Assembly (NCBI GenBank): GCA_965226375.1
Contig: CBDDCX010000008.1
Span: forward strand, 896,001 to 960,000
DNA length: 64,000 nucleotides
Direction of reading: 5' to 3'
Source: Longimicrobiales bacterium
GTDB taxonomy: Bacteria; Gemmatimonadota; Gemmatimonadetes; Longimicrobiales; Gaopeijiaceae
A program made the translations under genes and the position numbers. Positions 6,019 to 17,737 of the stretch are shown here, in pieces. Below the pieces are notes generated by a model. It was not told the origin of the DNA. It made no database searches and saw only the letters and a program-made list of their open reading frames with translations. Numbering within the stretch: position 1 is the stretch's first letter; the number at the start of each line of letters is the position of its first letter.

Positions 6019-6093
6019 GGGCGGTTAGCTCAGTTGGTTCAGAGCGCCTGGTTTACACCCAGGAGGTCACTGGTTCGAATCCAGTACCGCCCA
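6019..6093 (+). tRNA. tRNA-Val (anticodon TAC), CCA not encoded
   Basis: Acceptor GGGCGGT/ACCGCCC, D arm TAGCTCAG, anticodon stem CCTGG/CCAGG with TAC at 6054-6056, T loop GGTTCGAATCC. Confidence 0.97.
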
Positions 6094-6461: not shown

Positions 6462-7788
6462 GGTCAAGTCCCGAGTTGTGTGTAAAAGTGAGAGGAAGCT
6501 CCTCGATGCTTCGGTTAGGCTGCCTTGGCGACCTCCTTGGGTTCGAGAAGCGTGAGATCGAGGTAGCGGCGTTCGCTCCAGACCGCAGTAGTCTTCAGAG
6601 CAACCGCGGTGATGAGGCGGAGCGCACTGGCTCGGTCGGGGAAGGCGCCGGCGCTCCGGATCCGACGCTTGATCTCGGTGTGCAGGCGCTCGAGGCTGTT
6701 CGTGGTGCGTAGCCTGGCCCAGTGGGGCTCGGGGAACGCGTAGAACTGGGTGGCGGCCGTGAAGCCCCGCTCGAGCACCTTCATTGCCTCGGGGAGCTCC
6801 TCTTGCCAGCGCGTCGTGATCTCGGCCAGGCGCTTCTTCGCCTCAGCGAGCCCGGGGGCCCGGAAGACGGCGGCAACCTCGCGCGCCACACGCTTGCGCA
6901 GGCGATGCGGGACCTTGGCCAGCACGTTGCGTTGCAGGTGCACGGTGCAGCGCTGACGGCGCACCTCAGGCAGGAAGCGGCGCACCGCAGCTGCCAGGCC
7001 CGCGTGCTTGTCGGCGATCACCAGTTCGACGCCGCTGAGACCTCGCTCCAGGAGCTGCTCGAGGAGCTCCGACCAACTGTCCTCTGACTCCTCAGGGCCT
7101 AGCGTGATGGCCAGGAGCCGGCGGTGACCGTCCGGATCCACCGCGTAGGCCACGAGCGCGCTCACGTTCTCGACCTTCCTGGCCCAGCGCGCATCGAGGA
7201 ACGTCGCGTCCAGATACAGATAGGGGTGAGGCCCCTCGATGGGTGCGCTCCGCAGCGCTTCTACAGCCCCATCGAGCCGCTTCGCGACCCGGCTTACCGT
7301 CGAGCGTCCCACGCGCTCACCCAGCAGTGCTTCAGTCACGTCGCCCATCTTGCGCTGCGACACACCGCTCACGTAGGCCTCCACCATCATCTCGTCCACT
7401 TCTTCACTCCTGCGCCGGTAGCGGCCCATCACGTCGGCGGGCGAGCCGCCTTCCCGGCTGCGCGGCACCATCACGTCGATCTGACCCAAGCTCGTGAGCA
7501 GGCGCCTGAGGTACGTGCCGTTCCTGTGGTCCTTCCGGCTGCCGACCCGCTCGAAACGACGCGCTCCGACCATCGCTTTCAACTCCTCCTCCAGCACCAT
7601 CTCGAGCGTAACACGAATCGCGCCCTGAAACAACGACTTCAAATCCTGCCGTAACTCTTCTTGCGTGGCCCGCTCAACTTCAACCATCTTTTCCATGAGG
7701 AAGCTCCTTTCCGGTTCCGGACCTGCTGGCGCAGGCCCGGACTCCCCGGGTTCGTGTCATGATGAACATTCACAAGGAGCTTCCTCTC
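6462..7788 (-). mobile_element. IS256-family insertion sequence (upstream end incomplete)
   Basis: End GGTCAAGTCCCGAGTTGTGTGTAAAAGTGAGAGG resembles IS256 termini; only 13 bp of inverted match at 7776-7788; no target duplication seen. Confidence 0.82.
6515..7696 (-). CDS. IS256-family (Mutator-type) transposase
   Basis: RNGTYLR, YLYLDA, IADKHAGL, QRCTVHLQRN, RTTNSLERLHTEIKRR. Confidence 0.95.
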   Translation of the reverse strand: MEKMVEVERATQEELRQDLKSLFQGAIRVTLEMVLEEELKAMVGARRFERVGSRKDHRNGTYLRRLLTSLGQIDVMVPRSREGGSPADVMGRYRRRSEEVDEMMVEAYVSGVSQRKMGDVTEALLGERVGRSTVSRVAKRLDGAVEALRSAPIEGPHPYLYLDATFLDARWARKVENVSALVAYAVDPDGHRRLLAITLGPEESEDSWSELLEQLLERGLSGVELVIADKHAGLAAAVRRFLPEVRRQRCTVHLQRNVLAKVPHRLRKRVAREVAAVFRAPGLAEAKKRLAEITTRWQEELPEAMKVLERGFTAATQFYAFPEPHWARLRTTNSLERLHTEIKRRIRSAGAFPDRASALRLITAVALKTTAVWSERRYLDLTLLEPKEVAKAA

Positions 7789-7816
7789 TTTTTCCCGGGC
7801 TGTCCACCCTCCCCGG

Positions 7817-7869
7817 ACAGCGCACCTGATGGTTAACACAAGTGTGCCAGCTGATGGTTAACAGATTGG
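7817..7869 (-). mobile_element. Solo right end of the IS481-family element
   Basis: 53-bp exact reverse complement of 12891-12943. Confidence 0.88.
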
Positions 7870-7930
7870 CTCGCGTTCTTCGCTTGCGCTCAGCATCTTT
7901 GGCGCGCAGCAGAATCGCAATCCGGTAGAT
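7869..7930 (+). repeat. attC-like site, 3' half
   Basis: 54/62 identical to 17044-17105; ends GGTAGAT (one change from GTTRRRY) just before a gene. Confidence 0.65.
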
Positions 7931-7947
7931 GGCCCAATGGACTTCAG

Positions 7948-8346
7948 ATGACAGCCAAACCGTCGATTCGCACCTTGGTTCTAATCAGCGCGTCGCTGTA
8001 TGCCGCATTCTGCTCCCTCCCCTTCCTCCATCCCGCCCTAAGGAGGGTCCTCGGTGAGCCGGCTGACGTGGCGCAGATGTCAGCATTTTTCTGGCCGTAT
8101 CCGCTCTTCCTTAGTCTGTTGAAAGGCCTGGAGGGAAGTACAGCTACCTGGCTATTGGTAGATTTACTGGGTCTCGGAGCGGTCGTGCTTGGCTCGGCGT
8201 ATGCGTTCAGAAAACTCCGCGCCCTCGACGTCAAGCAGTGGTTCTTATACGCTGTCGCTCCGCTGATTTGGTATCTCCCGCTGCTGGGGGTTCAATTGGT
8301 CGCGTTTGGCATAGCCTTTATTCTGGGCATGGATATCGGCGAGTAG
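7948..8346 (+). CDS. Hypothetical membrane protein (cassette-like)
   Basis: 132 aa, three hydrophobic segments, visibly lower GC than the backbone, starts 17 bp after the attC-like end. Confidence 0.7.
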   Translation: MTAKPSIRTLVLISASLYAAFCSLPFLHPALRRVLGEPADVAQMSAFFWPYPLFLSLLKGLEGSTATWLLVDLLGLGAVVLGSAYAFRKLRALDVKQWFLYAVAPLIWYLPLLGVQLVAFGIAFILGMDIGE

Positions 8347-8614
8347 GTGGGTGAGCAGGGCTCCGAGGTGGTGGCCCGCGTGCAGGAGCTGGAGGAACGC
8401 CTAAGGGTGGCTTACGGTGATTTCTAAACAGCTGCTGTCGCGGTGAGCAAGCTATCACCGCCCGTCTAAGCGACGAGAGCCTTCCGGCCTACCCAGGATA
8501 CCGAATAAACCCCGAAGAAGCTCAGAACGTGAATACAAGCGTCCAACGGTCTTCTGCTTGCGCCTACCGGACCGCTCTCGGATGTTGACCACGGCCTGAT
8601 CCCGGAGTGCGCCC

Positions 8615-9688
8615 GTGTCCGATTCCGTCGCTCGTCTGAACGCTGTCCTTGGTCGCGTCGCCTCTCTCATCTTTCCGGCTACCGTGCTGAGCCTGGCCCT
8701 CGCAAGCTGCTCAGGCTCGCCATCCGGCTCCACGGTGCTGACGGCCGACATGCCGCTGCATCTGGAGCAACACCTAGACGCTGCCACCATCGTCGGCTCC
8801 GAAGTGCCGGTGGACGCTCCGACCGTTATGGAGTGGCACTTCGACGAGCCGCAGGAAGACTGGTAGCCGGCGGTGCCGTGGAACCCTACGAACGAGCCAG
8901 TCGAGGTCACGCAGCTCGAGGACGCGGTTCGTGTCACGCTGACGGACGGTACGAGGAATCCGAACGGCTTGCCGAGGGGCGGCATCGTTTGAGACGTGCC
9001 CGATTGGGCCTACGAGGATCTGGCGCACCTCGTGGTGCGTGCTCGCACGTCCGATGATGTCAGGAACATCGTGATCAACTTCAACCGACGCGAAGGGAGC
9101 GGGACGGATACGGACTTCCCCATGCCATTCGCTCACCGAGGCGAAACGGTCCCTGTTGTAAGCGACGGTACGGTGCAGACCTACCGGCTGCGGCTGGATT
9201 TCTTTGGGTGGCGCCCACGACCTGAGGGATCGATCCGGCAGCTCGCCCTGTGGTTCGATCCCAGCGATCTGGCCAGCATCGACATCCTTTCCATTACACT
9301 GACCACGAAGGTGGCCAACTACGCCGAGACGGGCGCCGCCTCGCGCACGGAAATCCGCAACCGGATTCATCGGCAGGCTCTGTATACCCACACGCCGGGC
9401 AGCGTAGAGTATCGGGTGAAGGTCCCGGAAGGTGGTCGGCTGTTCTACCGCAATGGAGCCGACGAGTTGGTGGCTGCACAGGTCACTACAGGTCCAACGT
9501 TCACGGTGGGCCAGCAAGAGGTGCTGTTTTCCCTCGCCGGGTACTATTCCGGCAGGGGTCATCCTCAATACGACGTGACGCCCGACGATCAGCGATTCGT
9601 GATGCTGAGGTTCGGGGATGAGGAGAACGCCGAACTCGTCTTGGTCCTGAACTTCTTCGAGGAGTTGAAGGAGCGGGTGCCGAATTGA
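8615..9688 (+). pseudogene. Chimeric pseudogene: N-terminus of a sulfatase-like lipoprotein fused in frame to a Ser/Thr-kinase-type beta-propeller tail
   Basis: Paralog of the 10660 gene with in-frame TAG (8864) and TGA (8990); switches near 9440 to FYRNG...YDVTPDDQRFVM...LNFFEELKERVPN. Confidence 0.8.
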
Positions 9689-9734
9689 ACCGTCAGGTCC
9701 CTTGGCTGCGCGTCTTCGTGGAAGGCGTGGTGAT
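9653..9734 (+). repeat. 82-bp exact direct repeat, copy 1 (connector spanning a stop/start overlap)
   Basis: Identical to 15017-15098. Confidence 0.92.
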
Positions 9735-10401
9735 CGTCGGCTCAATCCTGCTGGCGTTCGGACTTCAGGCGTGGTGGGACGGCGTTCAGGCGCGTGCTAC
9801 GGAGCGGAGCTACCTGCTCTCGCTCGGCGAAGAGTTCAGGCAGGCGCGTCCCCAACCAATGCGCGAACGGTCCCTTCGCTACGTCGCAGCCCTCATTGAC
9901 CAAACGCAAGGCGAACGGCTTGATGAGCCCGACTCCTTGTACCGTTGGACCACAGGGCTGTCGCAGCAGATCGAGTTCGATCCACCGCGCGCTGTGTTTG
10001 ACGATTTGGTGTCAGCGGGAGCGACGCAACTGATACGATCAGACAGCCTCCGACGGGCATTCGCTCGCTACTCGTCCCGGTTGGCTGCGTTGCGGTACGC
10101 TGACGCCCAGGCCTGGGCAACATGGGAGCAGAGAATCCAGCCATTCCTCGAGGGTCGAGTCCCACGATTGGAGCGTCTCCGAAACGGCGGGTTCGGGGCT
10201 GCCCCAGACCTTGGCGTCCCATTCGGGCCCTCGCGCCATGCGGCGCAGTGGGAGGAGGTGCTGCGCAGCGCTGGCTTCGAGGACATGCTCGTCGAAAGAT
10301 GGATGCGCCTTCGGCTCGCTAAGCGTCGCTATGACGACATAGTCGAACTCTCCGAGGAAACCCTCCGCTTGATCGCCAAGGAATTGGAGGACCTTGGATA
10401 G
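9685..10401 (+). CDS. DUF6090-like membrane-anchored helical protein
   Basis: N-terminal EGVVIVGSILLAFG TM anchor; DLVSAGATQLIRSDSLR motif; TTG overlaps the upstream TGA. Confidence 0.75.
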   Translation: MNRQVPWLRVFVEGVVIVGSILLAFGLQAWWDGVQARATERSYLLSLGEEFRQARPQPMRERSLRYVAALIDQTQGERLDEPDSLYRWTTGLSQQIEFDPPRAVFDDLVSAGATQLIRSDSLRRAFARYSSRLAALRYADAQAWATWEQRIQPFLEGRVPRLERLRNGGFGAAPDLGVPFGPSRHAAQWEEVLRSAGFEDMLVERWMRLRLAKRRYDDIVELSEETLRLIAKELEDLG

Positions 10402-11160
10402 CCACACGAGCGTGCACCTTGAGATCAAGTTTGAAGTGCAACACGCAAGGGGTTCATGGTCACAGGTCGCGGACCCGATAACGCCCGTCTAAGCGACGAG
10501 AGCCTCCACCCTACCCCTGATACCGAATAAACCCCGAAGACGCTCAGAACGCGAATACAGGCCCCTAGACGGCTTCTTGCGAGGTCAGCGAGAAGTTGAG
10601 CTTGCGCTTCCCGACCTGCGGATAGGATGTTGAGCGGGTCTGATTGTGGAGGTGTGCCTGTGTCCGATCTCGTCGCTCGTCTGAACGCTGTCCTTGGTCG
10701 CGCCGCCTCTCGAATCTTCCCGGTTACGGTGTTGAGCCTGGCCCTCGTGAGCTGCTCACGCTCGCCATCCGGCTCCACGGTGCTGACGGTCGACATGCCG
10801 TTGCATCTGGAGCAGCACCTAGACGCTGCCACCATCGTGGGCTCCGAAGTACCGGAGGACGTTCCGACCGTTATGGAGTGGCACTTCGACGAGCCCCAAG
10901 AAGATTGGAAGCCGGTGGTCCCGTGGAACCCAACGCACGATCCGGTCGAGATCACCCAGCTCGACGACGCGCTGCGAGTCACGTTTACGGACGGTACGAG
11001 GAATCAGTACGGCGGGCTGGATGGCGGCCTGGTTCTGGAGGTGCCCGATTGGAACTACGAGGATCTGGCTCATCTCGTGGTGCGTGCTCGCACCGCCGAT
11101 GATGTCGGGGGCTTCAGGCTCGCCTTCAATCGACGTGAAGGGCCTGGGAGGGAGACACGC

Positions 11161-12946
11161 GGTACAGCCTACCCTGATCCTTTACACAATGGCCTACACT
11201 GATGGTTGACAGGTTCCTATCAACCAGGGTTCTGCAACAAGGAGAGCCCGATGGACTGGAACCGGTCGACCATGTACGAGCAAAGAGTACGCTTCATCCT
11301 CGAAGTGCAACAACGGACGTTCAGTTTCGCCGAGTCCTGTAGGCGCTACGGTATTAGCAGGACCGCGGGATACACCTGGTGGAATCGCTTCCGCGCAGAG
11401 GGATTCGAGGGACTTCAAGAGCGATCGCGCCGACCCCATCACTGCCCGCACGCCGTGGAGGAGCCGATCGTCGAACACGTCGTCGACCTGCGTCAGCGCT
11501 ACGGTATGGGGATCACGCAAGATCCGTAAACTCACGAGCTGAGAAGTTTGGCTCGGCCCCAGTTCGCAGGACGATCGATCGCATCTTCGAGCGTCACGAC
11601 CAGGGAAAAGTGACATCTACAGCCGCTACGTCGTGGGATGGATGGTGGCGGCGGGAGACGGCCTCCAGCAGAGCTGCCTGAAGCATGGCGTCCAGCCCCG
11701 GGTCCTGGCACTCGGATCGGGGAGCTCCAATGACGAGCCAATGCAGCTCAACTTCTCGCTGACCTCGGCGTGACCCGCTCGTTGAGCCGGCCTCAGGTGT
11801 CGGATGACAACCCGTTTTGAGTTCAAAACCTTGAAGTACCATCCCTCGTTTCCCGGACGGTCGGGGATCAGGGCCAAGCCAAGACGTTCTGTCGATCGTT
11901 CTTCCGCTGGAGCACCGCCATGGCGGCATCTCGCTAACCCCCGAGCAGGTCCACTTCGGGAACGCCGATCAGGTCATTGCCGGCAGGAAATCCGTGCTCC
12001 GCGAAGCATGGGCCGCTCATCCCGAACGCTTCGTCGCCGAAGCCCAAACCGCTCCCGGAGGCCGTCTTCATCAATCCTCCCATCCCTTCCCTCACCACAC
12101 AGGACATTGCTCTCTAATTAATCCCGTAGAGTGTCCCATTGTCGTTGACAATGCGGTCTGGACCGTCGACTTCAAAGGGCAGTTCAAGATGCGCAACGGT
12201 CGCTACTGCTACCCCCTCACGATCCAGGACGGCTTCAGCCGGTTCCTGCTCGAGTGCACAGGGCTGTATTCCACGTCGATCGAGCTCGCCAAGCCTGTGT
12301 TCATCAGGACTTTCCGCGAGTTCGGTCTGCCCGCCGTCATCCGCTCCGACAATGGTACGCCCTTCGCTTCCATCGGCCTCGCTCGCCTCACACGCCTGAG
12401 TGCCTGGTGGATCCGCCTCGGTATCCGTCCTGAGACCATCGAGCCGGGTAAGCCGCAGCAGAACGGCCGACACGAACGCATGCACAGGACCCTCAAGCGT
12501 GAAGCCACTCGCCCGCCCAAGGCCAACCTCAGTGCCCAGCAGCGCCACTTCAACGACTTCCGCCACACATTCAATCACATCCGCCCCCACGAGGCGCTCG
12601 ACGACGCTACTCCCCATTCCGTCTACCGATCGGCTCTTAGAGCCTACCCCGACGTCCTTCCGCCCATCGAGTACCCTGAGCACTTCGAGGTCCGTAAGGT
12701 CTCTACAAACGGAGCCATCCGCTGGCACTCGCGTTGGATCAACATCAGTTCGGCTCTGGGCAACGAGTTCATCGGGCTCGAACCCATCGGCCCCGCTCTG
12801 TGGCAGGTCTACTTCGGTCCCACTACCCTCGGGTGGTTTGACGAAGAACTCTTCGTCATTTTCGACACCCACGGTAACACAGGACGTAACCCAATCTGTT
12901 AACCATCAGCTGGCACACTTGTGTTAACCATCAGGTGCGCTGTTCA
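11161..12946 (+). mobile_element. IS481-family element, disrupted
   Basis: Imperfect inverted ends, each with two TGAT..TT.ACA units; flanking CGC/CACGC direct repeat; HTH N-terminus from ATG 11251 (frameshifts near 11506 and 11537); rve core WTVDFKG, SDNGTPF, NGRHERMHRTLK, RPHEAL to 12902. Confidence 0.9.
11611..12150 (+). mobile_element. Degraded IS3-family integrase fragment nested in IS481
   Basis: Pieces DIYSRYVVGWMVA, SDRGAPM, LLADLGVTRSLSRPQVSDDNPF, FKTLKYHPSFPGR, AAHPERFV across several frameshifts; end-like GTGTCCCATTGTCGTTGACA. Confidence 0.8.
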
Positions 12947-15016
12947 CGCTTCCGCCAGTACTTCGAGTACGATGGCGAGCCGGTCACTGTTGTAAGTGAC
13001 GGTACGGTGCAGACCTACCGGGCGCGGCTGGATTACTTTAGGGCTTCTCCACCGGAGGACCGATTCGGCAGATTGCCCTGTGGTTCAACCCCCGCGATCT
13101 GGCCAGCATCGACATCCTTTCCATCACACTGGTCCCGAAGGTGGCCAACTATGCCGACGCGGGTGCGGCCTCGCGCACGGAAATCCGCAACCGGGTCTAT
13201 CGGCAGGCTGTGTATACGCACACGCCGGGGCGCGTGGAGTATCGGGTAAAGATCCCTGAAGGTGGCCGTCTCGACTTCGCGATGGGTGTCTTGCGTGAGG
13301 ATGTGCCCGTGACCTTTCGGGTCACGGCGACCGCCGACGGTGCCGAAGGCAGTGAACCGACCACGCTGTTTGAGGAGCACTACGCGGCAAAGGAGACCTG
13401 GGGCCAGCGTTCGGTGGATCTGACCGACCTTGCCGGCCAGACGGTGACGCTCGGCCTCGAGGCCGATTCGGAAGCCGAAGGGCGGGTCGCTTTGTGGGGA
13501 GCGCCTACCGTGACGGGCGGCGGCCAGTCGTCTCTTCCCAACGTCGTCTTCTACGTCTTCGACGGCGGCGCAGCGGACTACATGAGCGTGTACGGCTACA
13601 ACCGTCGCACGACCCCGGCCCTGGAGCGGCTGGCCCAGGAGGGCGTCGTGTTCGAGCGAGCGTATAGCAATTCCAGTTGGACACTGCCCTCGCCCGCCTC
13701 GTTCATGACTTCCCTACAGACAGTGTGACGGGGGGCTTGCTCGGCACCAACGTGAACCCGATACCGGCCGAGGCCGTGACCATGGCCGAGCACGTACACC
13801 GGGCCGGCTACCAGACGGCGGTGTTCACGGGGAACCCCAACGCCGGGACTCTGAGCGATCTCCAGCGTGGGGTCGATCTGTTCCGGGAGGACTGGGAGGA
13901 CTTCTCGTACTTCGGTGGGAATAATCACAGGGAGTCCTCGACGTACCTGCACGAGGGATTCTGGAGCTGGCGGGAGGACTATCCCAGCCAGCCGTTTTGG
14001 GCGCACTTCCAGACGACTGACACGCATGAGGATTTCCCCGCCGTGGCTCCGTTTTCGGGGCTTTTTGTGAGTCCGGATCAGCTGGCGACGTGGCGCGTGT
14101 GGCAAGACTCCCTGGAGTCACTGGGCAACCACGGCGTCTACTCCGGGGCATGGGAGAAGTCTGGGCTGGACCGCGTGAAGTTCTTTGCCATGCACCAGGG
14201 CCTCTACGACGAAACCATGGCCCACAACGACTACCAGCTCGGGCGGCTGGTCGAACGTCTCAAGGCCTCAGGCGAATGGGAAAACACGTTGCTGATCATC
14301 GGGGGCGATCACAGCATTGAAGCGGCCATGGACGACATGGGCGTCGCGATCCAAGACTCGCTTCCTCCCCAATGGAGCCGGCCGATGTTCCGGCCCACGA
14401 TCTCCAGGGTGCCTCTCATGTTTGTGTGGCCGGGTCACATCGAGGGAGGACAGCGGATAGCCCCTCCCGTATCGATGATCGACGTACTCCCCACCCTGCT
14501 CGACCTACTGGGGCTCCCCCCTGCCGAGATCGCACAGGGACAGTCGCTGGCTCCTCTGATGATGGGTCGAGAGGGATGGGAGCTGCGCCCGGTAATCTTC
14601 GACGAGTTCTACTCAGATGCCCAGAACGGAGAAGTGTCGGGCGTTATTGAGGTGGTGGATGGCCGCTGGGAGTGCGACGCTGGAGAGTGTCATGGCCGCT
14701 GGGGTGCGATGGAGATCAATGGGGGGAACCCCGGAGAGAACGAGGGGGAGTGGAAGCGCCCCTCCCCGCTGCTGCTCTACGACCTGTGGAACGATCCGAT
14801 GGCGCTGTGGAGCCTGCACGAGGAACGGCCGGATCTGGTTGAGAAATACACTGCCTTTCTGGAACATCAGTTTGAGGCTCACATGGCCCTGTCTCAGTAC
14901 TTCACACGATCCGGCGATGTTGCGTTGACGCCGGAGCAACTACAGACGCTCCGCACGCTGGGCTACATCCGATGAAGAGGACCGTGAGTGCTGGCGGAGT
15001 CTGCCTCGTCCAGAAT

Positions 15017-15098
15017 TTCTTCGAGGAGTTGAAGGAGCGGGTGCCGAATTGAACCGTCAGGTCCCTTGGCTGCGCGTCTTCGTGGAAGGCGTGGTGAT
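15017..15098 (+). repeat. 82-bp exact direct repeat, copy 2
   Basis: Identical to 9653-9734. Confidence 0.92.
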
Positions 15099-15765
15099 TG
15101 TTGGGTCGATTCTGATGGCGTTCGGGATTGAGGCTTGGTGGGACGGTCAACAGCTTCGGCGGGATGAAGCTCAGGCGCTCGGGGACCTGCATACCGAGTT
15201 TGCAGCCAACCTCGACGGGATTGAGCGTATCACGCGGAGGCACCGAACTCTGATCTCAGCGGGGACCCAGCTCCTTGCTATGACTAGGGACCGTGATGCG
15301 ACCCCACCACGCCCTCAATTGGATACTCTTCTCTTCGCGTCCTTCGTGGACTACACGACCTACGACCCACAATCCGCTGCGCTGAGCGACCTCATCTCCT
15401 CGGGGCGACTAGGCCTGATCAGCGACGACACGCTCCGTATGGCCCTGGCCGACTGGCCAGCCGCGGTCGAGGACTTCATCGAGGAGGAGCGGCTGGTGGT
15501 CCGGCTTGTTGAGTCCTCTCTGCTACCCTACGTAACGGCGCGTGCAGCCACTGTTGACCTTTACCGTGCCTCCCGCGAAGCGTACGGATCATTCGCGCCG
15601 GGTCAACGCGATTCTGACCTCGCCGCGCTACTGGGTGCTCCGGAGTTTGAGAGTCATGTAGCCAATCGAGTTGCTCATGAGAGCCGCGCCCTCTACGAGC
15701 TTGAGATCATCCTCCGGCCACAAGTGGATATGATCCTGGAGCGGTTGGTGAGGGCCACTCGCTAA
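15049..15765 (+). CDS. DUF6090-like membrane-anchored helical protein
   Basis: Same N-terminus as the 9685 gene; DLISSGRLGLISDDTLR motif; stop lies within CGCTAAC. Confidence 0.78.
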   Translation: MNRQVPWLRVFVEGVVIVGSILMAFGIEAWWDGQQLRRDEAQALGDLHTEFAANLDGIERITRRHRTLISAGTQLLAMTRDRDATPPRPQLDTLLFASFVDYTTYDPQSAALSDLISSGRLGLISDDTLRMALADWPAAVEDFIEEERLVVRLVESSLLPYVTARAATVDLYRASREAYGSFAPGQRDSDLAALLGAPEFESHVANRVAHESRALYELEIILRPQVDMILERLVRATR

Positions 15766-15771
15766 CGTAGG

Positions 15772-15891
15772 TGAACAGCGCACCTGATGGTTGACACAAT
15801 GGTGCCAGCTGATGGTTAACAGATTGGGTTACGTCCTGTGTTACCGTGGGTGTCGAAAATGACGAAGAGTTCTTCGTCAAACCACCCGAGG
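15772..15891 (-). mobile_element. Solo right-end fragment of the IS481-family element
   Basis: Reverse complement of 12827-12946 with 3 differences. Confidence 0.9.
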
Positions 15892-16092
15892 CCGTGATCG
15901 ATTTCTTGATGCGGATGGGTCCCGCCACGAGCTGACCCGTGTTGCTCACGATGGCGATCACTGAATACGTTGCGTGTGCATCGATTCCTGCGACAAACAT
16001 GGCTGGCCTCCTTGGGTTGGGTGCCGCAGGTCCTTGAACAAGCCCAGCGTAACGCCCCGCTCGAGTGAGGTCAGCCCTTCGCCTTATAAGAT
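15892..16092 (-). mobile_element. IS110-family left end and transposase N-terminal fragment
   Basis: AAGGAGG RBS, ATG at 16000, MFVAGIDAHATYSVIAIVSNTGQLV (GID start of the RuvC-like domain); end reads ATCTTATAAGG. Confidence 0.72.
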
Positions 16093-16113
16093 CAGAATCG
16101 CAATTCGTTCGAG
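16093..16113 (+). repeat. attC-like site, 3' terminal piece
   Basis: CAGAATCGCAATTCGTTCGAG, 19/21 identical to 17085-17105. Confidence 0.6.
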
Positions 16114-16129
16114 CGCACTGGAGCTGAGG

Positions 16130-16741
16130 TTGTCAGAAGCGAGTTCGGGGATTCCGTTCAGAAGGGCCATCTTCGAGGGTGCGGTCATCCTCGTCCTCAT
16201 ACTCCTGATCGGAGTGTCATGGGGGTGCTCGTCTGATGCCACGGGACCACCGGACGCGCCGGTCGGCGGCGGCGAGGAAACGCCACTGCATGGTCCAGAG
16301 AACCCTGCCCTAGTCGGCGACACGCTAACCCTCTCGAATATCACCGGACTGCGCGGCGGTAACCGGGCTACCATCCGTCTCACGTACCTTGGTCATGTCG
16401 CGGGCGCCGCGGCGCTGGACACGGTGATGGCGGCCAACCAATTCAACGAAGAGCCACCGGCGGGCTTCGAGTATCTACTGGGCCGCTTTTGGGTGGAAAT
16501 CGTCCAGTTGGCCGACCCGGGTATCGCGTTCCGTATGTGGGACGGACACTGGGAATCCGTGTCGGGGGCAGGGGTGATCCATGAACAGCCACTATTTGGA
16601 GTCTGCTGTCTTGAGGAAGTGCTTGATGGGGAGGGGTTCAGGGGCAGGTCATGGGAGGGGTGGGTGCCGTTCTTTGTCTTGCCATCTGACGAAGGAGTGC
16701 TAGGCACCTACCAGCGACTGGTCTGGTTCAAACTGCGTTGA
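16130..16741 (+). CDS. Hypothetical lipoprotein-like protein (DUF4352-like Ig fold possible)
   Basis: TTG start after GGAG; hydrophobic segment then WGC; 'NQFNEEPPAGFEYL' and 'EGWVPF' segments. Confidence 0.6.
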   Translation: MSEASSGIPFRRAIFEGAVILVLILLIGVSWGCSSDATGPPDAPVGGGEETPLHGPENPALVGDTLTLSNITGLRGGNRATIRLTYLGHVAGAAALDTVMAANQFNEEPPAGFEYLLGRFWVEIVQLADPGIAFRMWDGHWESVSGAGVIHEQPLFGVCCLEEVLDGEGFRGRSWEGWVPFFVLPSDEGVLGTYQRLVWFKLR

Positions 16742-16996
16742 AGGCGAGGGGACTACATGACCGCCCTTCTCATTGAGCAAAGCGAGGTTCTTCTCACAGA
16801 TCTAGACAGTCTCCTCGTGGATCTTGATAGGGCCATGGCACGATAGGCCATGTGCGATCGGCGCTCCCAGGGGCTCGTGTCTCTGATTGAGCGTGTCATC
16901 TTTGAAGACGCCTTTCGTTCAGCCCGTTATCGTCAACAGTTCGACATGGCGACGGACTTGATCACCCTTCTCCAGGGGGAAACTGCGCACGGTTCA

Positions 16997-17105
16997 GCCT
17001 AACACCATCACGAAGGACCGGGTCAAGTAGTCCTGAGCATCCCGCTCGCGCGTTTCGCTTGCGGTCACCATCTTAGGCGCGCAGCAGAATCGCAATCCGT
17101 TAGAG
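16997..17105 (+). repeat. attC-like site (R'' GCCTAAC to R' GTTAGAG), left arm apparently partly deleted
   Basis: RYYYAAC overlaps the TAA of the upstream ORF; GTTAG end 23 bp before the next ATG; 109 bp long. Confidence 0.68.
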
Positions 17106-17128: not shown

Positions 17129-17632
17129 ATGAGCCAAACGCCCGAGAGTCGTCGGTGGAGAAAGCTGGTCGGAGAAGGGCTCCTCATCGTCTTCAGCATT
17201 CTCCTGGCATTTGGGATCGAGGCGGGGTGGAGCCAACGAGGCGAACGCCAGGCCGAGGTCGAGGCTCTGCAAGGGCTAAGTGACGACTTCGTCGAGAGCC
17301 TGGAACGACTCACATCGGTCGGGTCAGACCACGTCGAGGTGCGAGACGCTTCGGTCCGGCTGCTCGCGATGACGGGGCCTGACGCCGACCAGACCGTGTC
17401 CGACCTGGTCATGGACACCTTGGTTATGGCGTTGATCGCCTACCCTAAGGTGTTTCCCGTTACCGCCACGTATGACGCTCTGATCGCTTCCGGCCGAATC
17501 CAACTCCTCGAGAGTGCAGCACTGCGTCGAGAGTTGGCGCGCTGGGCGACGGCGGTCGTAGACCTCCGGGAGGAGGAGCGAGATGCGTTCAGATAAATGG
17601 ACGAACGTCTGCTGCCCTATCTGTTCGATCAG
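17129..17632 (+). pseudogene. DUF6090-like protein, premature TAA and truncated
   Basis: EGLLIVFSILLAFG anchor, ALIASGRIQLLESAALR; TAA at 17594 followed in frame by MDERLLPYL (compare ESSLLPYV in the paralog). Confidence 0.75.
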
Positions 17633-17737
17633 CTCCTGCGTCCGCATCTCTAGGTGGAAGTGAACTTCTTTGTCCACATCCTCACCGATGGGAAGATCAC
17701 CGACATCGGGCCGATCGGAATGGAAACGCCGGTGCAT
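17621..17737 (-). pseudogene. N-terminal stub of a PadR-associated ABC permease (permease prefix domain)
   Basis: EDVDKEVHFHLEMRTQELI motif, then runs into the antisense strand of the 17129 gene. Confidence 0.75.

Follow-up and report, generated by a model that had tools for sequence, protein, structure and literature searches.

What has become of a group of integron-like repeats that lie beside a tRNA-Val gene with no integrase in sight? The question is raised by positions 7869-17105 of a stretch of 64,000 nucleotides (hereafter, the window) of contig CBDDCX010000008.1, assembly GCA_965226375.1, from a Longimicrobiales bacterium. A preliminary description took these repeats for a decayed chromosomal array of cassettes separated by attC sites of one family, i.e., a structure like a CALIN (a cluster of attC sites without an integron-integrase). 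The analysis that followed makes it quite probable that the locus holds four fragments of one attC family of about 100 bp, two of them joined to ends of likely RNA-guided insertion sequences (IS) of the IS1111 type, and that later deletions likely removed most of each IS and part of each site, the cassettes being predicted to be immobile. What the window holds is the relic of such a structure rather than a functioning one. The coordinates of the features are collected in Table 1.

The three right-arm copies are present at 7869-7930, 16093-16113 and 17044-17105, and each is followed by a start codon on the + strand (ATG 7948 after 17 nt, TTG 16130 after 16 nt and ATG 17129 after 23 nt). A 17-mer motif of the arm gave three matches in the window with up to two mismatches (7910, 16093 and 17085), versus 0.00 expected, with no match in 100 shuffles. 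The copies at 7869-7930 and 17044-17105 share 86% identity over 66 nt, while that at 16093 is a mere 21-nt tail, which scored 26.5 bits on a profile built from relatives versus 16.4 bits for the best control. Two copies have a damaged R' box, which reads GGTAGAT at 7924-7930 and GTTCGAG at 16107-16113. Concerning the left arms, 8432-8442, which had been taken to pair with a right arm, belongs to the left arm of the next site and is not the partner of any of the right arms listed. The 12-mer at 8432 is by itself at chance level (0.89 expected with one mismatch); the 19-mer 8431-8449 scored 25.9 bits on the left-arm profile from relatives versus 20.0 for the best of 26 control tiles of 64 kb. 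The three left-end motifs that had been quoted do contain TAA, but the open reading frames (ORFs) ending at 8427 and 17002 carry internal TAG codons (8344 and 16844), and of the supposed left end CGCTAAC at 15760 only the heptamer with its TAA holds, nothing beyond it supporting an attC end. Taken as an R'' box, the 15760 pattern occurred in 13 of 151 genomes, no more than a reversed-pattern control, and was rejected; motifs of this heptamer type end 1.9% of the long ORFs of the same contig (105/5596). No copy in the window is intact, as had been stated: the left arms are unpaired or absent in the two copies detected by the covariance model, the other two are single-arm fragments, and none has a complete foldable hairpin. 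An assembly artefact is unlikely because 16093-17095 is bridged, with 0-3 differences, by contigs of public runs that come from three separate studies (X1, X3 and X4), and 7820-8142 is covered, with no difference, by those of two (X1 and X3). The contigs of run X9 do not reach 15174-15590, from which no inference was drawn.

The right arm was found in 9 of the 40 relatives searched. Intact sites of about 100 bp, of which the arm forms the right part, are arrayed in direct repeats between small genes in G002, a member of the same genus, and in G011, of the same family. The 21 intact sites of these two genomes align at 75% mean column identity. Their parts come in one order: R'' and then L'', with a spacer of 5 nt between them and an additional base in L''; another additional base 7 nt further along; the variable loop; and last L' and R'. 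The boxes R''/R' and L''/L' are inverted with respect to each other, and AAC and GTT are invariant in 21/21 sites. On the bottom strand, 94.8% of the cells of the named structure are paired, versus 20-59% when the structure is slid, and the two unpaired bases, 7 nt apart, are C and A, giving an asymmetric site with extrahelical bases; the L'-R' spacer has 8-9 nt. Those extrahelical bases and that spacer differ from the textbook attC. Considering the gene context in relatives, a stop codon lies at R'' in 18/32 copies (17% at random) and a start codon after R' in 17/28 (20% at random), and the full-length members sit between small ORFs, about 0.6-0.8 kb apart at the closest, and 3' of intI. A covariance model made from 20 intact sites matched 59 of the 121 family genomes searched. 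So, because of the box anatomy, the pairing and the gene-boundary context in relatives, the family can be said to be attC by anatomy and context, mostly ruined in the genome of the window.

In that genome, a profile made only from relatives (earlier profiles contained seeds from the genome itself) gave 26 family hits, only 3 of them with both ends, against 0 in the reversed-genome control. Profiles were used in place of a strict-pairing de novo attC scan, which yielded few sites. A start codon was present within 45 nt of 10/13 R'-bearing copies, versus 20% of random positions.

Within the window, the model from relatives detected just two sites, 7831-7930 (37.6 bits) and 16997-17105 (46.6 bits), both with the left arm unpaired; the profiles added the 16093 tail and the 8431-8449 left arm. 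The remains are read as two one-cassette footprints, 7869-8449 and 16093-17105, and not as one array, because the two model sites are 9 kb apart and 8450-15765 is pseudogene and IS material (7.6 kb of IS and duplicated sulfatase/kinase pseudogene sequence between the footprints). The preliminary description thus stands in that the repeats are attC-derived, of one family and on one strand, but not in that they form a single array. At least two attC sites less than 4 kb apart on one strand, as expected of a CALIN, are obtained only by counting fragments (7869/8422 and 16093/16997), not with the model sites. No match to the four attI regions compared was found in the window. The orthologous tRNA-Val locus of the congener G002 holds four intact attC sites on the same strand, with no intI nearby, and an attI-like A-rich GTTAG ahead of the first cassette, behind another IS.

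As to the genes of the footprints, the ORF at 7948 had no homolog in the 80 other family genomes, and a promoter scan of 7700-8700 found none. The DUF6090-like gene at 17129 has homologs that are complete cassettes in G002 and G062. The lipoprotein gene is probably not a cassette gene, since the counterpart of its body (16266-16764) in G002, 92% identical, carries no attC. The possibility that 16130-17002 was one DUF6090-like gene split by the lipoprotein was considered and found no support (N-terminus E 0.57, C-terminus unmatched).

Three IS1111-type elements, here called IS-A, IS-B and IS-C, cut sites of this family. The transposase assignments derive from full-length relatives, the window keeping IS ends only. 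In relatives, full-length IS-A has a 345-aa transposase of the IS110 family, subterminal repeats and a 3' non-coding region of about 330 nt. The transposases of IS-A and IS-B combine PF01548 and PF02371, as DEDD transposases of IS110 do, and that of IS-C matches annotated IS110; a long 3' non-coding region and subterminal inverted repeats were seen in all three elements, the repeat of IS-B being short (about 6 nt, as judged by eye). The three transposases are only 21-31% identical, and each element has its own insertion point: R'' for IS-C, L' for IS-A and the GTT of R' for IS-B. The IS-A junction of the window (16092/16093) is at the same point as in the full-length copies of relatives, and the IS-A end of the window matches 7 of 60 family genomes. 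Of 14 full-length IS-A loci, judged by eye, 8 have the element against a clear attC, no more than 3 nt from the L' point; this is probably so at 1 more, and at 5 the element adjoins other targets. The IS-C junction (17004/17005) is at R'', and the same R'' context precedes IS-C ends in relatives; G078 has a complete IS-C of 1305 bp within an attC, and in G126 three left-end junctions fall at the identical point. IS-B (1572 bp) lies outside the window; elsewhere in the same genome it cuts the R' GTT, and 8/8 of its left ends there are at a GTT; in the stretches fetched from G011 it cuts 9/23 attC hits at R'. Among the plasmid matches listed for the three transposases, the best were other IS110 elements at 24-35% identity, from haloarchaea, Burkholderiales, rhizobia and others.

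Two further observations concern insertions in these sites. In G125 (L106), a single attC bears both IS-A at L' and IS-B at R'. Separately, a gene-less insert of about 70-100 bp is found at the L' box of attC in G002 and G011 (L059:9367, L059:12227 and L056:15499), possibly a non-autonomous passenger; a similar start occurs at G000:C8:1324846.

The choice of target was examined in the 3' non-coding regions, each of which holds a pair of short segments. The first of the pair is the complement of the right flank; the second repeats, on the IS strand, the sequence of the left flank. With IS-A, the guides matched their own flanks over a mean of 12.7 nt at the 13 usable loci of the 14 (9/13 with at least 13 nt), versus 7.1 nt for mismatched guide-flank pairs, only 2/138 of which reached at least 12 nt; none of 20000 shuffles produced the guide pair. 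The guides of IS-A shift where the target shifts, including a different attC type in G084 and palindromes that are not attC. The first guide of IS-B varies with the target across four genomes, and IS-C follows the same guide-target pattern at fewer loci. Altogether, 8 guide groups were distinguished for IS-A and 4 for IS-B. It is likely that the predicted RNA guides of the 3' non-coding regions select the target.

Concerning the integrase, the profile search gave no IntI match in the window, as previously described, and the sole hit over the cut-off in this genome is on contig C4: a full-length IntI of 349 aa, over the TIGR02249 cut-off, with the IntI-specific region present and R-K-H-R-H-Y intact, whose best PDB match is IntI4 (E 7e-54). 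After its gene come, in the same orientation, an A-rich GTTAG site and then one further gene. IntI over the cut-off was found in 38/151 family genomes. Of the 35 of them other than G000, G002 and G011, 20 were fetched, picked by contig position: 14 loci have attC hits, all co-oriented with intI and 3' of it (one also 5'), and 6 have none, three of these being at contig ends. The loci of G002 and G011 likewise have intI co-oriented with the cassettes. These data suggest that co-oriented integrases are the rule across the whole bacterial family. A related-locus search with IntI found one distant locus.

Some other recombinase and attI loci were observed. At G000:C7:277614-278675 (- strand) there is an IntI-like tyrosine recombinase without the IntI-specific region (it matches the profile at 2-179 and 235-315). 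Behind it, in the same orientation, are small genes (an antitoxin/RelE-like pair and others) with a different repeat, ending in GTTAG/GTTAT, between them, and then a family attC. G011 contains a unit (L052:9144-11500, L055:7742-10100) formed by a tyrosine recombinase, with 7 copies in that genome, and an IS91-type Y2 transposase; the two copies that were read are inserted at the attI GTT, and the unit terminates in an attC-like palindrome of its own. Solo attI regions without intI occur at G000:C2:10754-10950 and L052:8817-9076, each followed by cassette-type genes. At G002:C3:1030300-1030600 (L050/L065), a tRNA-like gene has intI immediately on its 3' side, and the 3' end of this tRNA-like gene is repeated nearby, as at an island integration site.

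In the history proposed for the locus, its starting material would be the family attC, recognized by anatomy and arrayed intact in relatives, also at the tRNA-Val locus. The cassettes would have been loaded by the co-oriented IntI of the lineage, either in trans or before separation from intI. IS-A would then have entered L' and IS-C R'', both antiparallel to the cassettes and at the junctions that full-length copies show in relatives, the target being picked, as predicted by analogy with seekRNA, by the two guide segments of each 3' non-coding region. IS481/IS256 traffic and deletions would have erased the remainder; no bottom-strand hairpin would then be possible, and the genes would gather nonsense codons.

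This history has to be weighed against other explanations. If 7869-17105 were a single continuous CALIN, every + strand gene would be a cassette, and it agrees with this that all the fragments are on one strand, that the DUF6090-like genes at 9685 and 15049 have cassette homologs, and that the first cassette gene in the tRNA-Val array of G002 shares 66% identity with 9730-10310. But neither the model nor the profiles found an attC fragment between 8449 and 16093, the 9685 and 15049 genes overlap a kinase-type 3' end in a layout repeated genome-wide without attC, the 15760 motif is unsupported and the lipoprotein body has a non-cassette ortholog; a continuous array is quite improbable. Another explanation is that the fragments were brought piecemeal by IS-mediated rearrangement or recombination between repeats, the integrase never having acted at the locus. 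The genome abounds in IS copies and chimeric genes, the junction of IS-A with an attC tail is found again by itself at C7:102300, and most of the 26 family copies are solitary (4 clusters within 4 kb). However, the array at the orthologous locus of G002 is intact, keeps to the same strand and has an attI-like start, and 7869-8449 retains both cassette ends around one gene, so that piecemeal arrival seems rather unlikely.

That the repeat is not attC at all, but a MITE (a transposable element of the miniature inverted-repeat type), a repetitive extragenic palindrome (REP) or an IS end, could be thought from its distribution in this genome, where it is dispersed, mostly partial and tied to IS ends. 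Against it, full-length members show attC boxes, asymmetry, extrahelical bases, small-ORF spacing and a place 3' of intI; there are no target duplications, and the IS ends cut through the repeat instead of making it up. The preliminary description had named copies that neither fold as attC nor lie at cassette-like gene boundaries as what would tell against it, and the full-length members in relatives do fold as attC and bound small ORFs. This explanation is largely refuted and can be given hardly any credit.

The preferred reading, i.e., attC fragments cut by attC-targeting IS1111-type elements and then eroded, has several points against it. Concerning the window, an attC-specific IS scar is seen on only two of the four fragments, since 7869 is fused to IS481, an element of varied insertion sites, and 8422 has no IS end; besides, the window is without any IS non-coding guide region, the guides having been read from relatives, and the congener G001 has no attC at the tRNA-Val locus. 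Elsewhere in the genome, scars of IS-A, IS-B and IS-C occur at only about 5 sites, only 2/5 complete IS-B copies are in clear family attC sites, the stop codon at R'' is weakly enriched (only 3/8 copies versus 17% at random), and the approximately 34 kb scanned around the intI gave attC hits of E 0.4 at best. In relatives, some IS-A elements target other palindromes, 4/13 IS-A loci fit their own guides poorly (6-8 nt), and the covariation in the hairpin amounts to 4 compensatory pairs, of thin weight since the sequences are related. Finally, the guide RNAs, the transposition and the activity of IntI are predictions from sequence.

CALINs are attC sites without a nearby intI, clustered by a 4-kb rule (Cury et al. 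2016, PMC4889954), and conserved CALIN loci have been reported in Xanthomonas (PMC12444791). The window resembles them in having attC without intI nearby, IntI elsewhere in the genome and IS in and around the array, and differs in that no site is intact and the two model-detectable sites, 9 kb apart, exceed the 4-kb rule (PMC4889954). Concerning the IS, the IS1111-attC group (ISPst6, ISPa21, ISKpn4, ISPa25) is described as monophyletic and as having one insertion position (PMC11187229, PMC3001079), in antisense and near the 5' end of attC, and the two guide matches of seekRNA are ordered top-strand and then bottom-strand (PMC11187229, section 9). IS-A, IS-B and IS-C share with them an IS110-family transposase, a long 3' non-coding region, antisense insertion in attC and the guide order (PMC11187229). 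Only IS-C fits the position near the 5' end of attC, IS-A (L') and IS-B (R') departing from the wording of PMC3001079, and, in contrast to one lineage at one position, three divergent transposases act here at R'', L' and the R' GTT. The four named elements were absent among the listed best plasmid hits of the three transposases, the comparison with them being by description only. Guide-target covariation has been described in IS110 (PMC11208160). Group IIC-attC introns are also parasites of the attC bottom strand, in opposite orientation to cassette transcription (PMC3001079), but they are retroelements, and none was seen here. Integrons with inverted integrase are known in Treponema and others (PMC4889954, PMC8352920) and likewise have intI on the cassette strand with the array at its 3' end; the difference is that the layout extends here across one family, in 14/14 informative loci. 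The top Atlas cluster for one gene gives weak evidence that this family is of the Gemmatimonadota. Gemmatimonadota integrons are listed in PMC8618304. The literature search, to which most subscription papers were closed, found no report of IS110-family insertion at attC L' or R', nor of inverted integrons in Gemmatimonadota. Provisionally, then, the L' and R' insertion positions are taken as new; CALINs, attC-targeting IS1111 and inverted integrases were already known, while three lineages splitting one attC were not found in the literature consulted.

Table 1. Features of the window around the two attC footprints (positions of the window).
Feature	Position	Strand	Remarks
tRNA-Val(TAC)	6019..6093	+	Left landmark of variable locus; locus holds intact 4-attC array in G002
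IS256/Mutator-family element	6462..7818	-	Several 100% identical genome copies; cuts adjoining IS481 end
IS481 right-end remnant, 53 bp	7817..7869	-	Fused straight to attC half; deletion junction
attC right part, ~60%	7869..7930	+	Loop, L', R' with GTT -> GGT; left arm lost
Cassette-like membrane-protein gene	7948..8427	+	Internal TAG 8344; final TAA within R''-like motif
attC left-arm remnant	8422..8449	+	R''-like box, spacer shortened, L'' and a stem that has one extrahelical base; remainder lost
Non-cassette stretch	8450..15765	+	Repeated leader, duplicated frameshifted sulfatase/kinase fragments, two DUF6090-like genes, IS481 copy
DUF6090-like genes	9685-10401 and 15049-15765		Within 8450-15765 stretch
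IS481 copy	11161-12946		Foreign IS fragment inside
IS481 right-end remnant	15772..15891	-	
IS-A left end and first 32 transposase codons	15905..16092	-	Antiparallel to cassettes, inserted at attC L' box
attC distal tail	16093..16113	+	L', spacer, R', beyond IS-A junction
Lipoprotein-like gene	16130..16741	+	5' end differs from G002 counterpart; probable chimera
Short ORF	16757..17002	+	Interrupted by TAG 16844; its stop falls in R''; no homolog found
attC R'' and next base	16997..17004	+	Up to IS-C insertion point
IS-C right-end remnant	17005..17036 (clear match 17005-17027)	-	Antiparallel, replaces attC left arm
attC right part, ~70%	17037..17105	+	L' and R' intact
DUF6090-like cassette-type gene	17129..17653	+	Internal TAA 17594, truncated

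Regarding the rest of the locus, the tRNA was the sole match in an Rfam search of the window. The two DUF6090-like genes of the 8450-15765 stretch have one N-terminus in common (9631-9782 and 14995-15146), which overlaps a kinase-type C-terminal end, and the same graft recurs on C7, on C8 and in G002 with other gene bodies. The leader of about 100 bp (8459-8560 and 10482-10562), with about a dozen genome copies ahead of kinase/sulfatase genes and no Rfam match, comes directly after the last attC left-arm remnant, here and in G002. An internally deleted IS fragment of about 550 bp (11612-12150), IS3-like by similarity to a G002 element and present in more than 30 near-identical copies, lies inside the IS481 copy. 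IS481 itself was considered as a possible attC-specific element and rejected, its 13 left ends and 14 right ends being mostly in unrelated flanks.

Taken alone, the window is a decayed array of the ordinary sort. From its scars one is led to a natural series of IS1111 guides and targets on different boxes of a folded site, and this series brings two points within reach of testing: the form, duplex or hairpin, in which these recombinases read attC, and the manner in which cassette arrays die. The results suggest that attC scanners miss sites broken by such insertions. What would go beyond an ordinary decayed cassette cluster is the apparent parasitism by three lineages, box-specific and guide-tracking, together with the family-wide inverted layout. 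As a tentative interpretation, which may well not hold, three RNA-guided IS1111 lineages of independent origin would share out one attC hairpin family, each taking one functional box (R'', L' or the crossover GTT of R'), with their guides naturally reprogrammed to the attC type of the host. Jointly, they would be a main force making inverted integrons cassette graveyards, and the crossover element, which keeps GTT on both sides, might move by IntI as cassette cargo.

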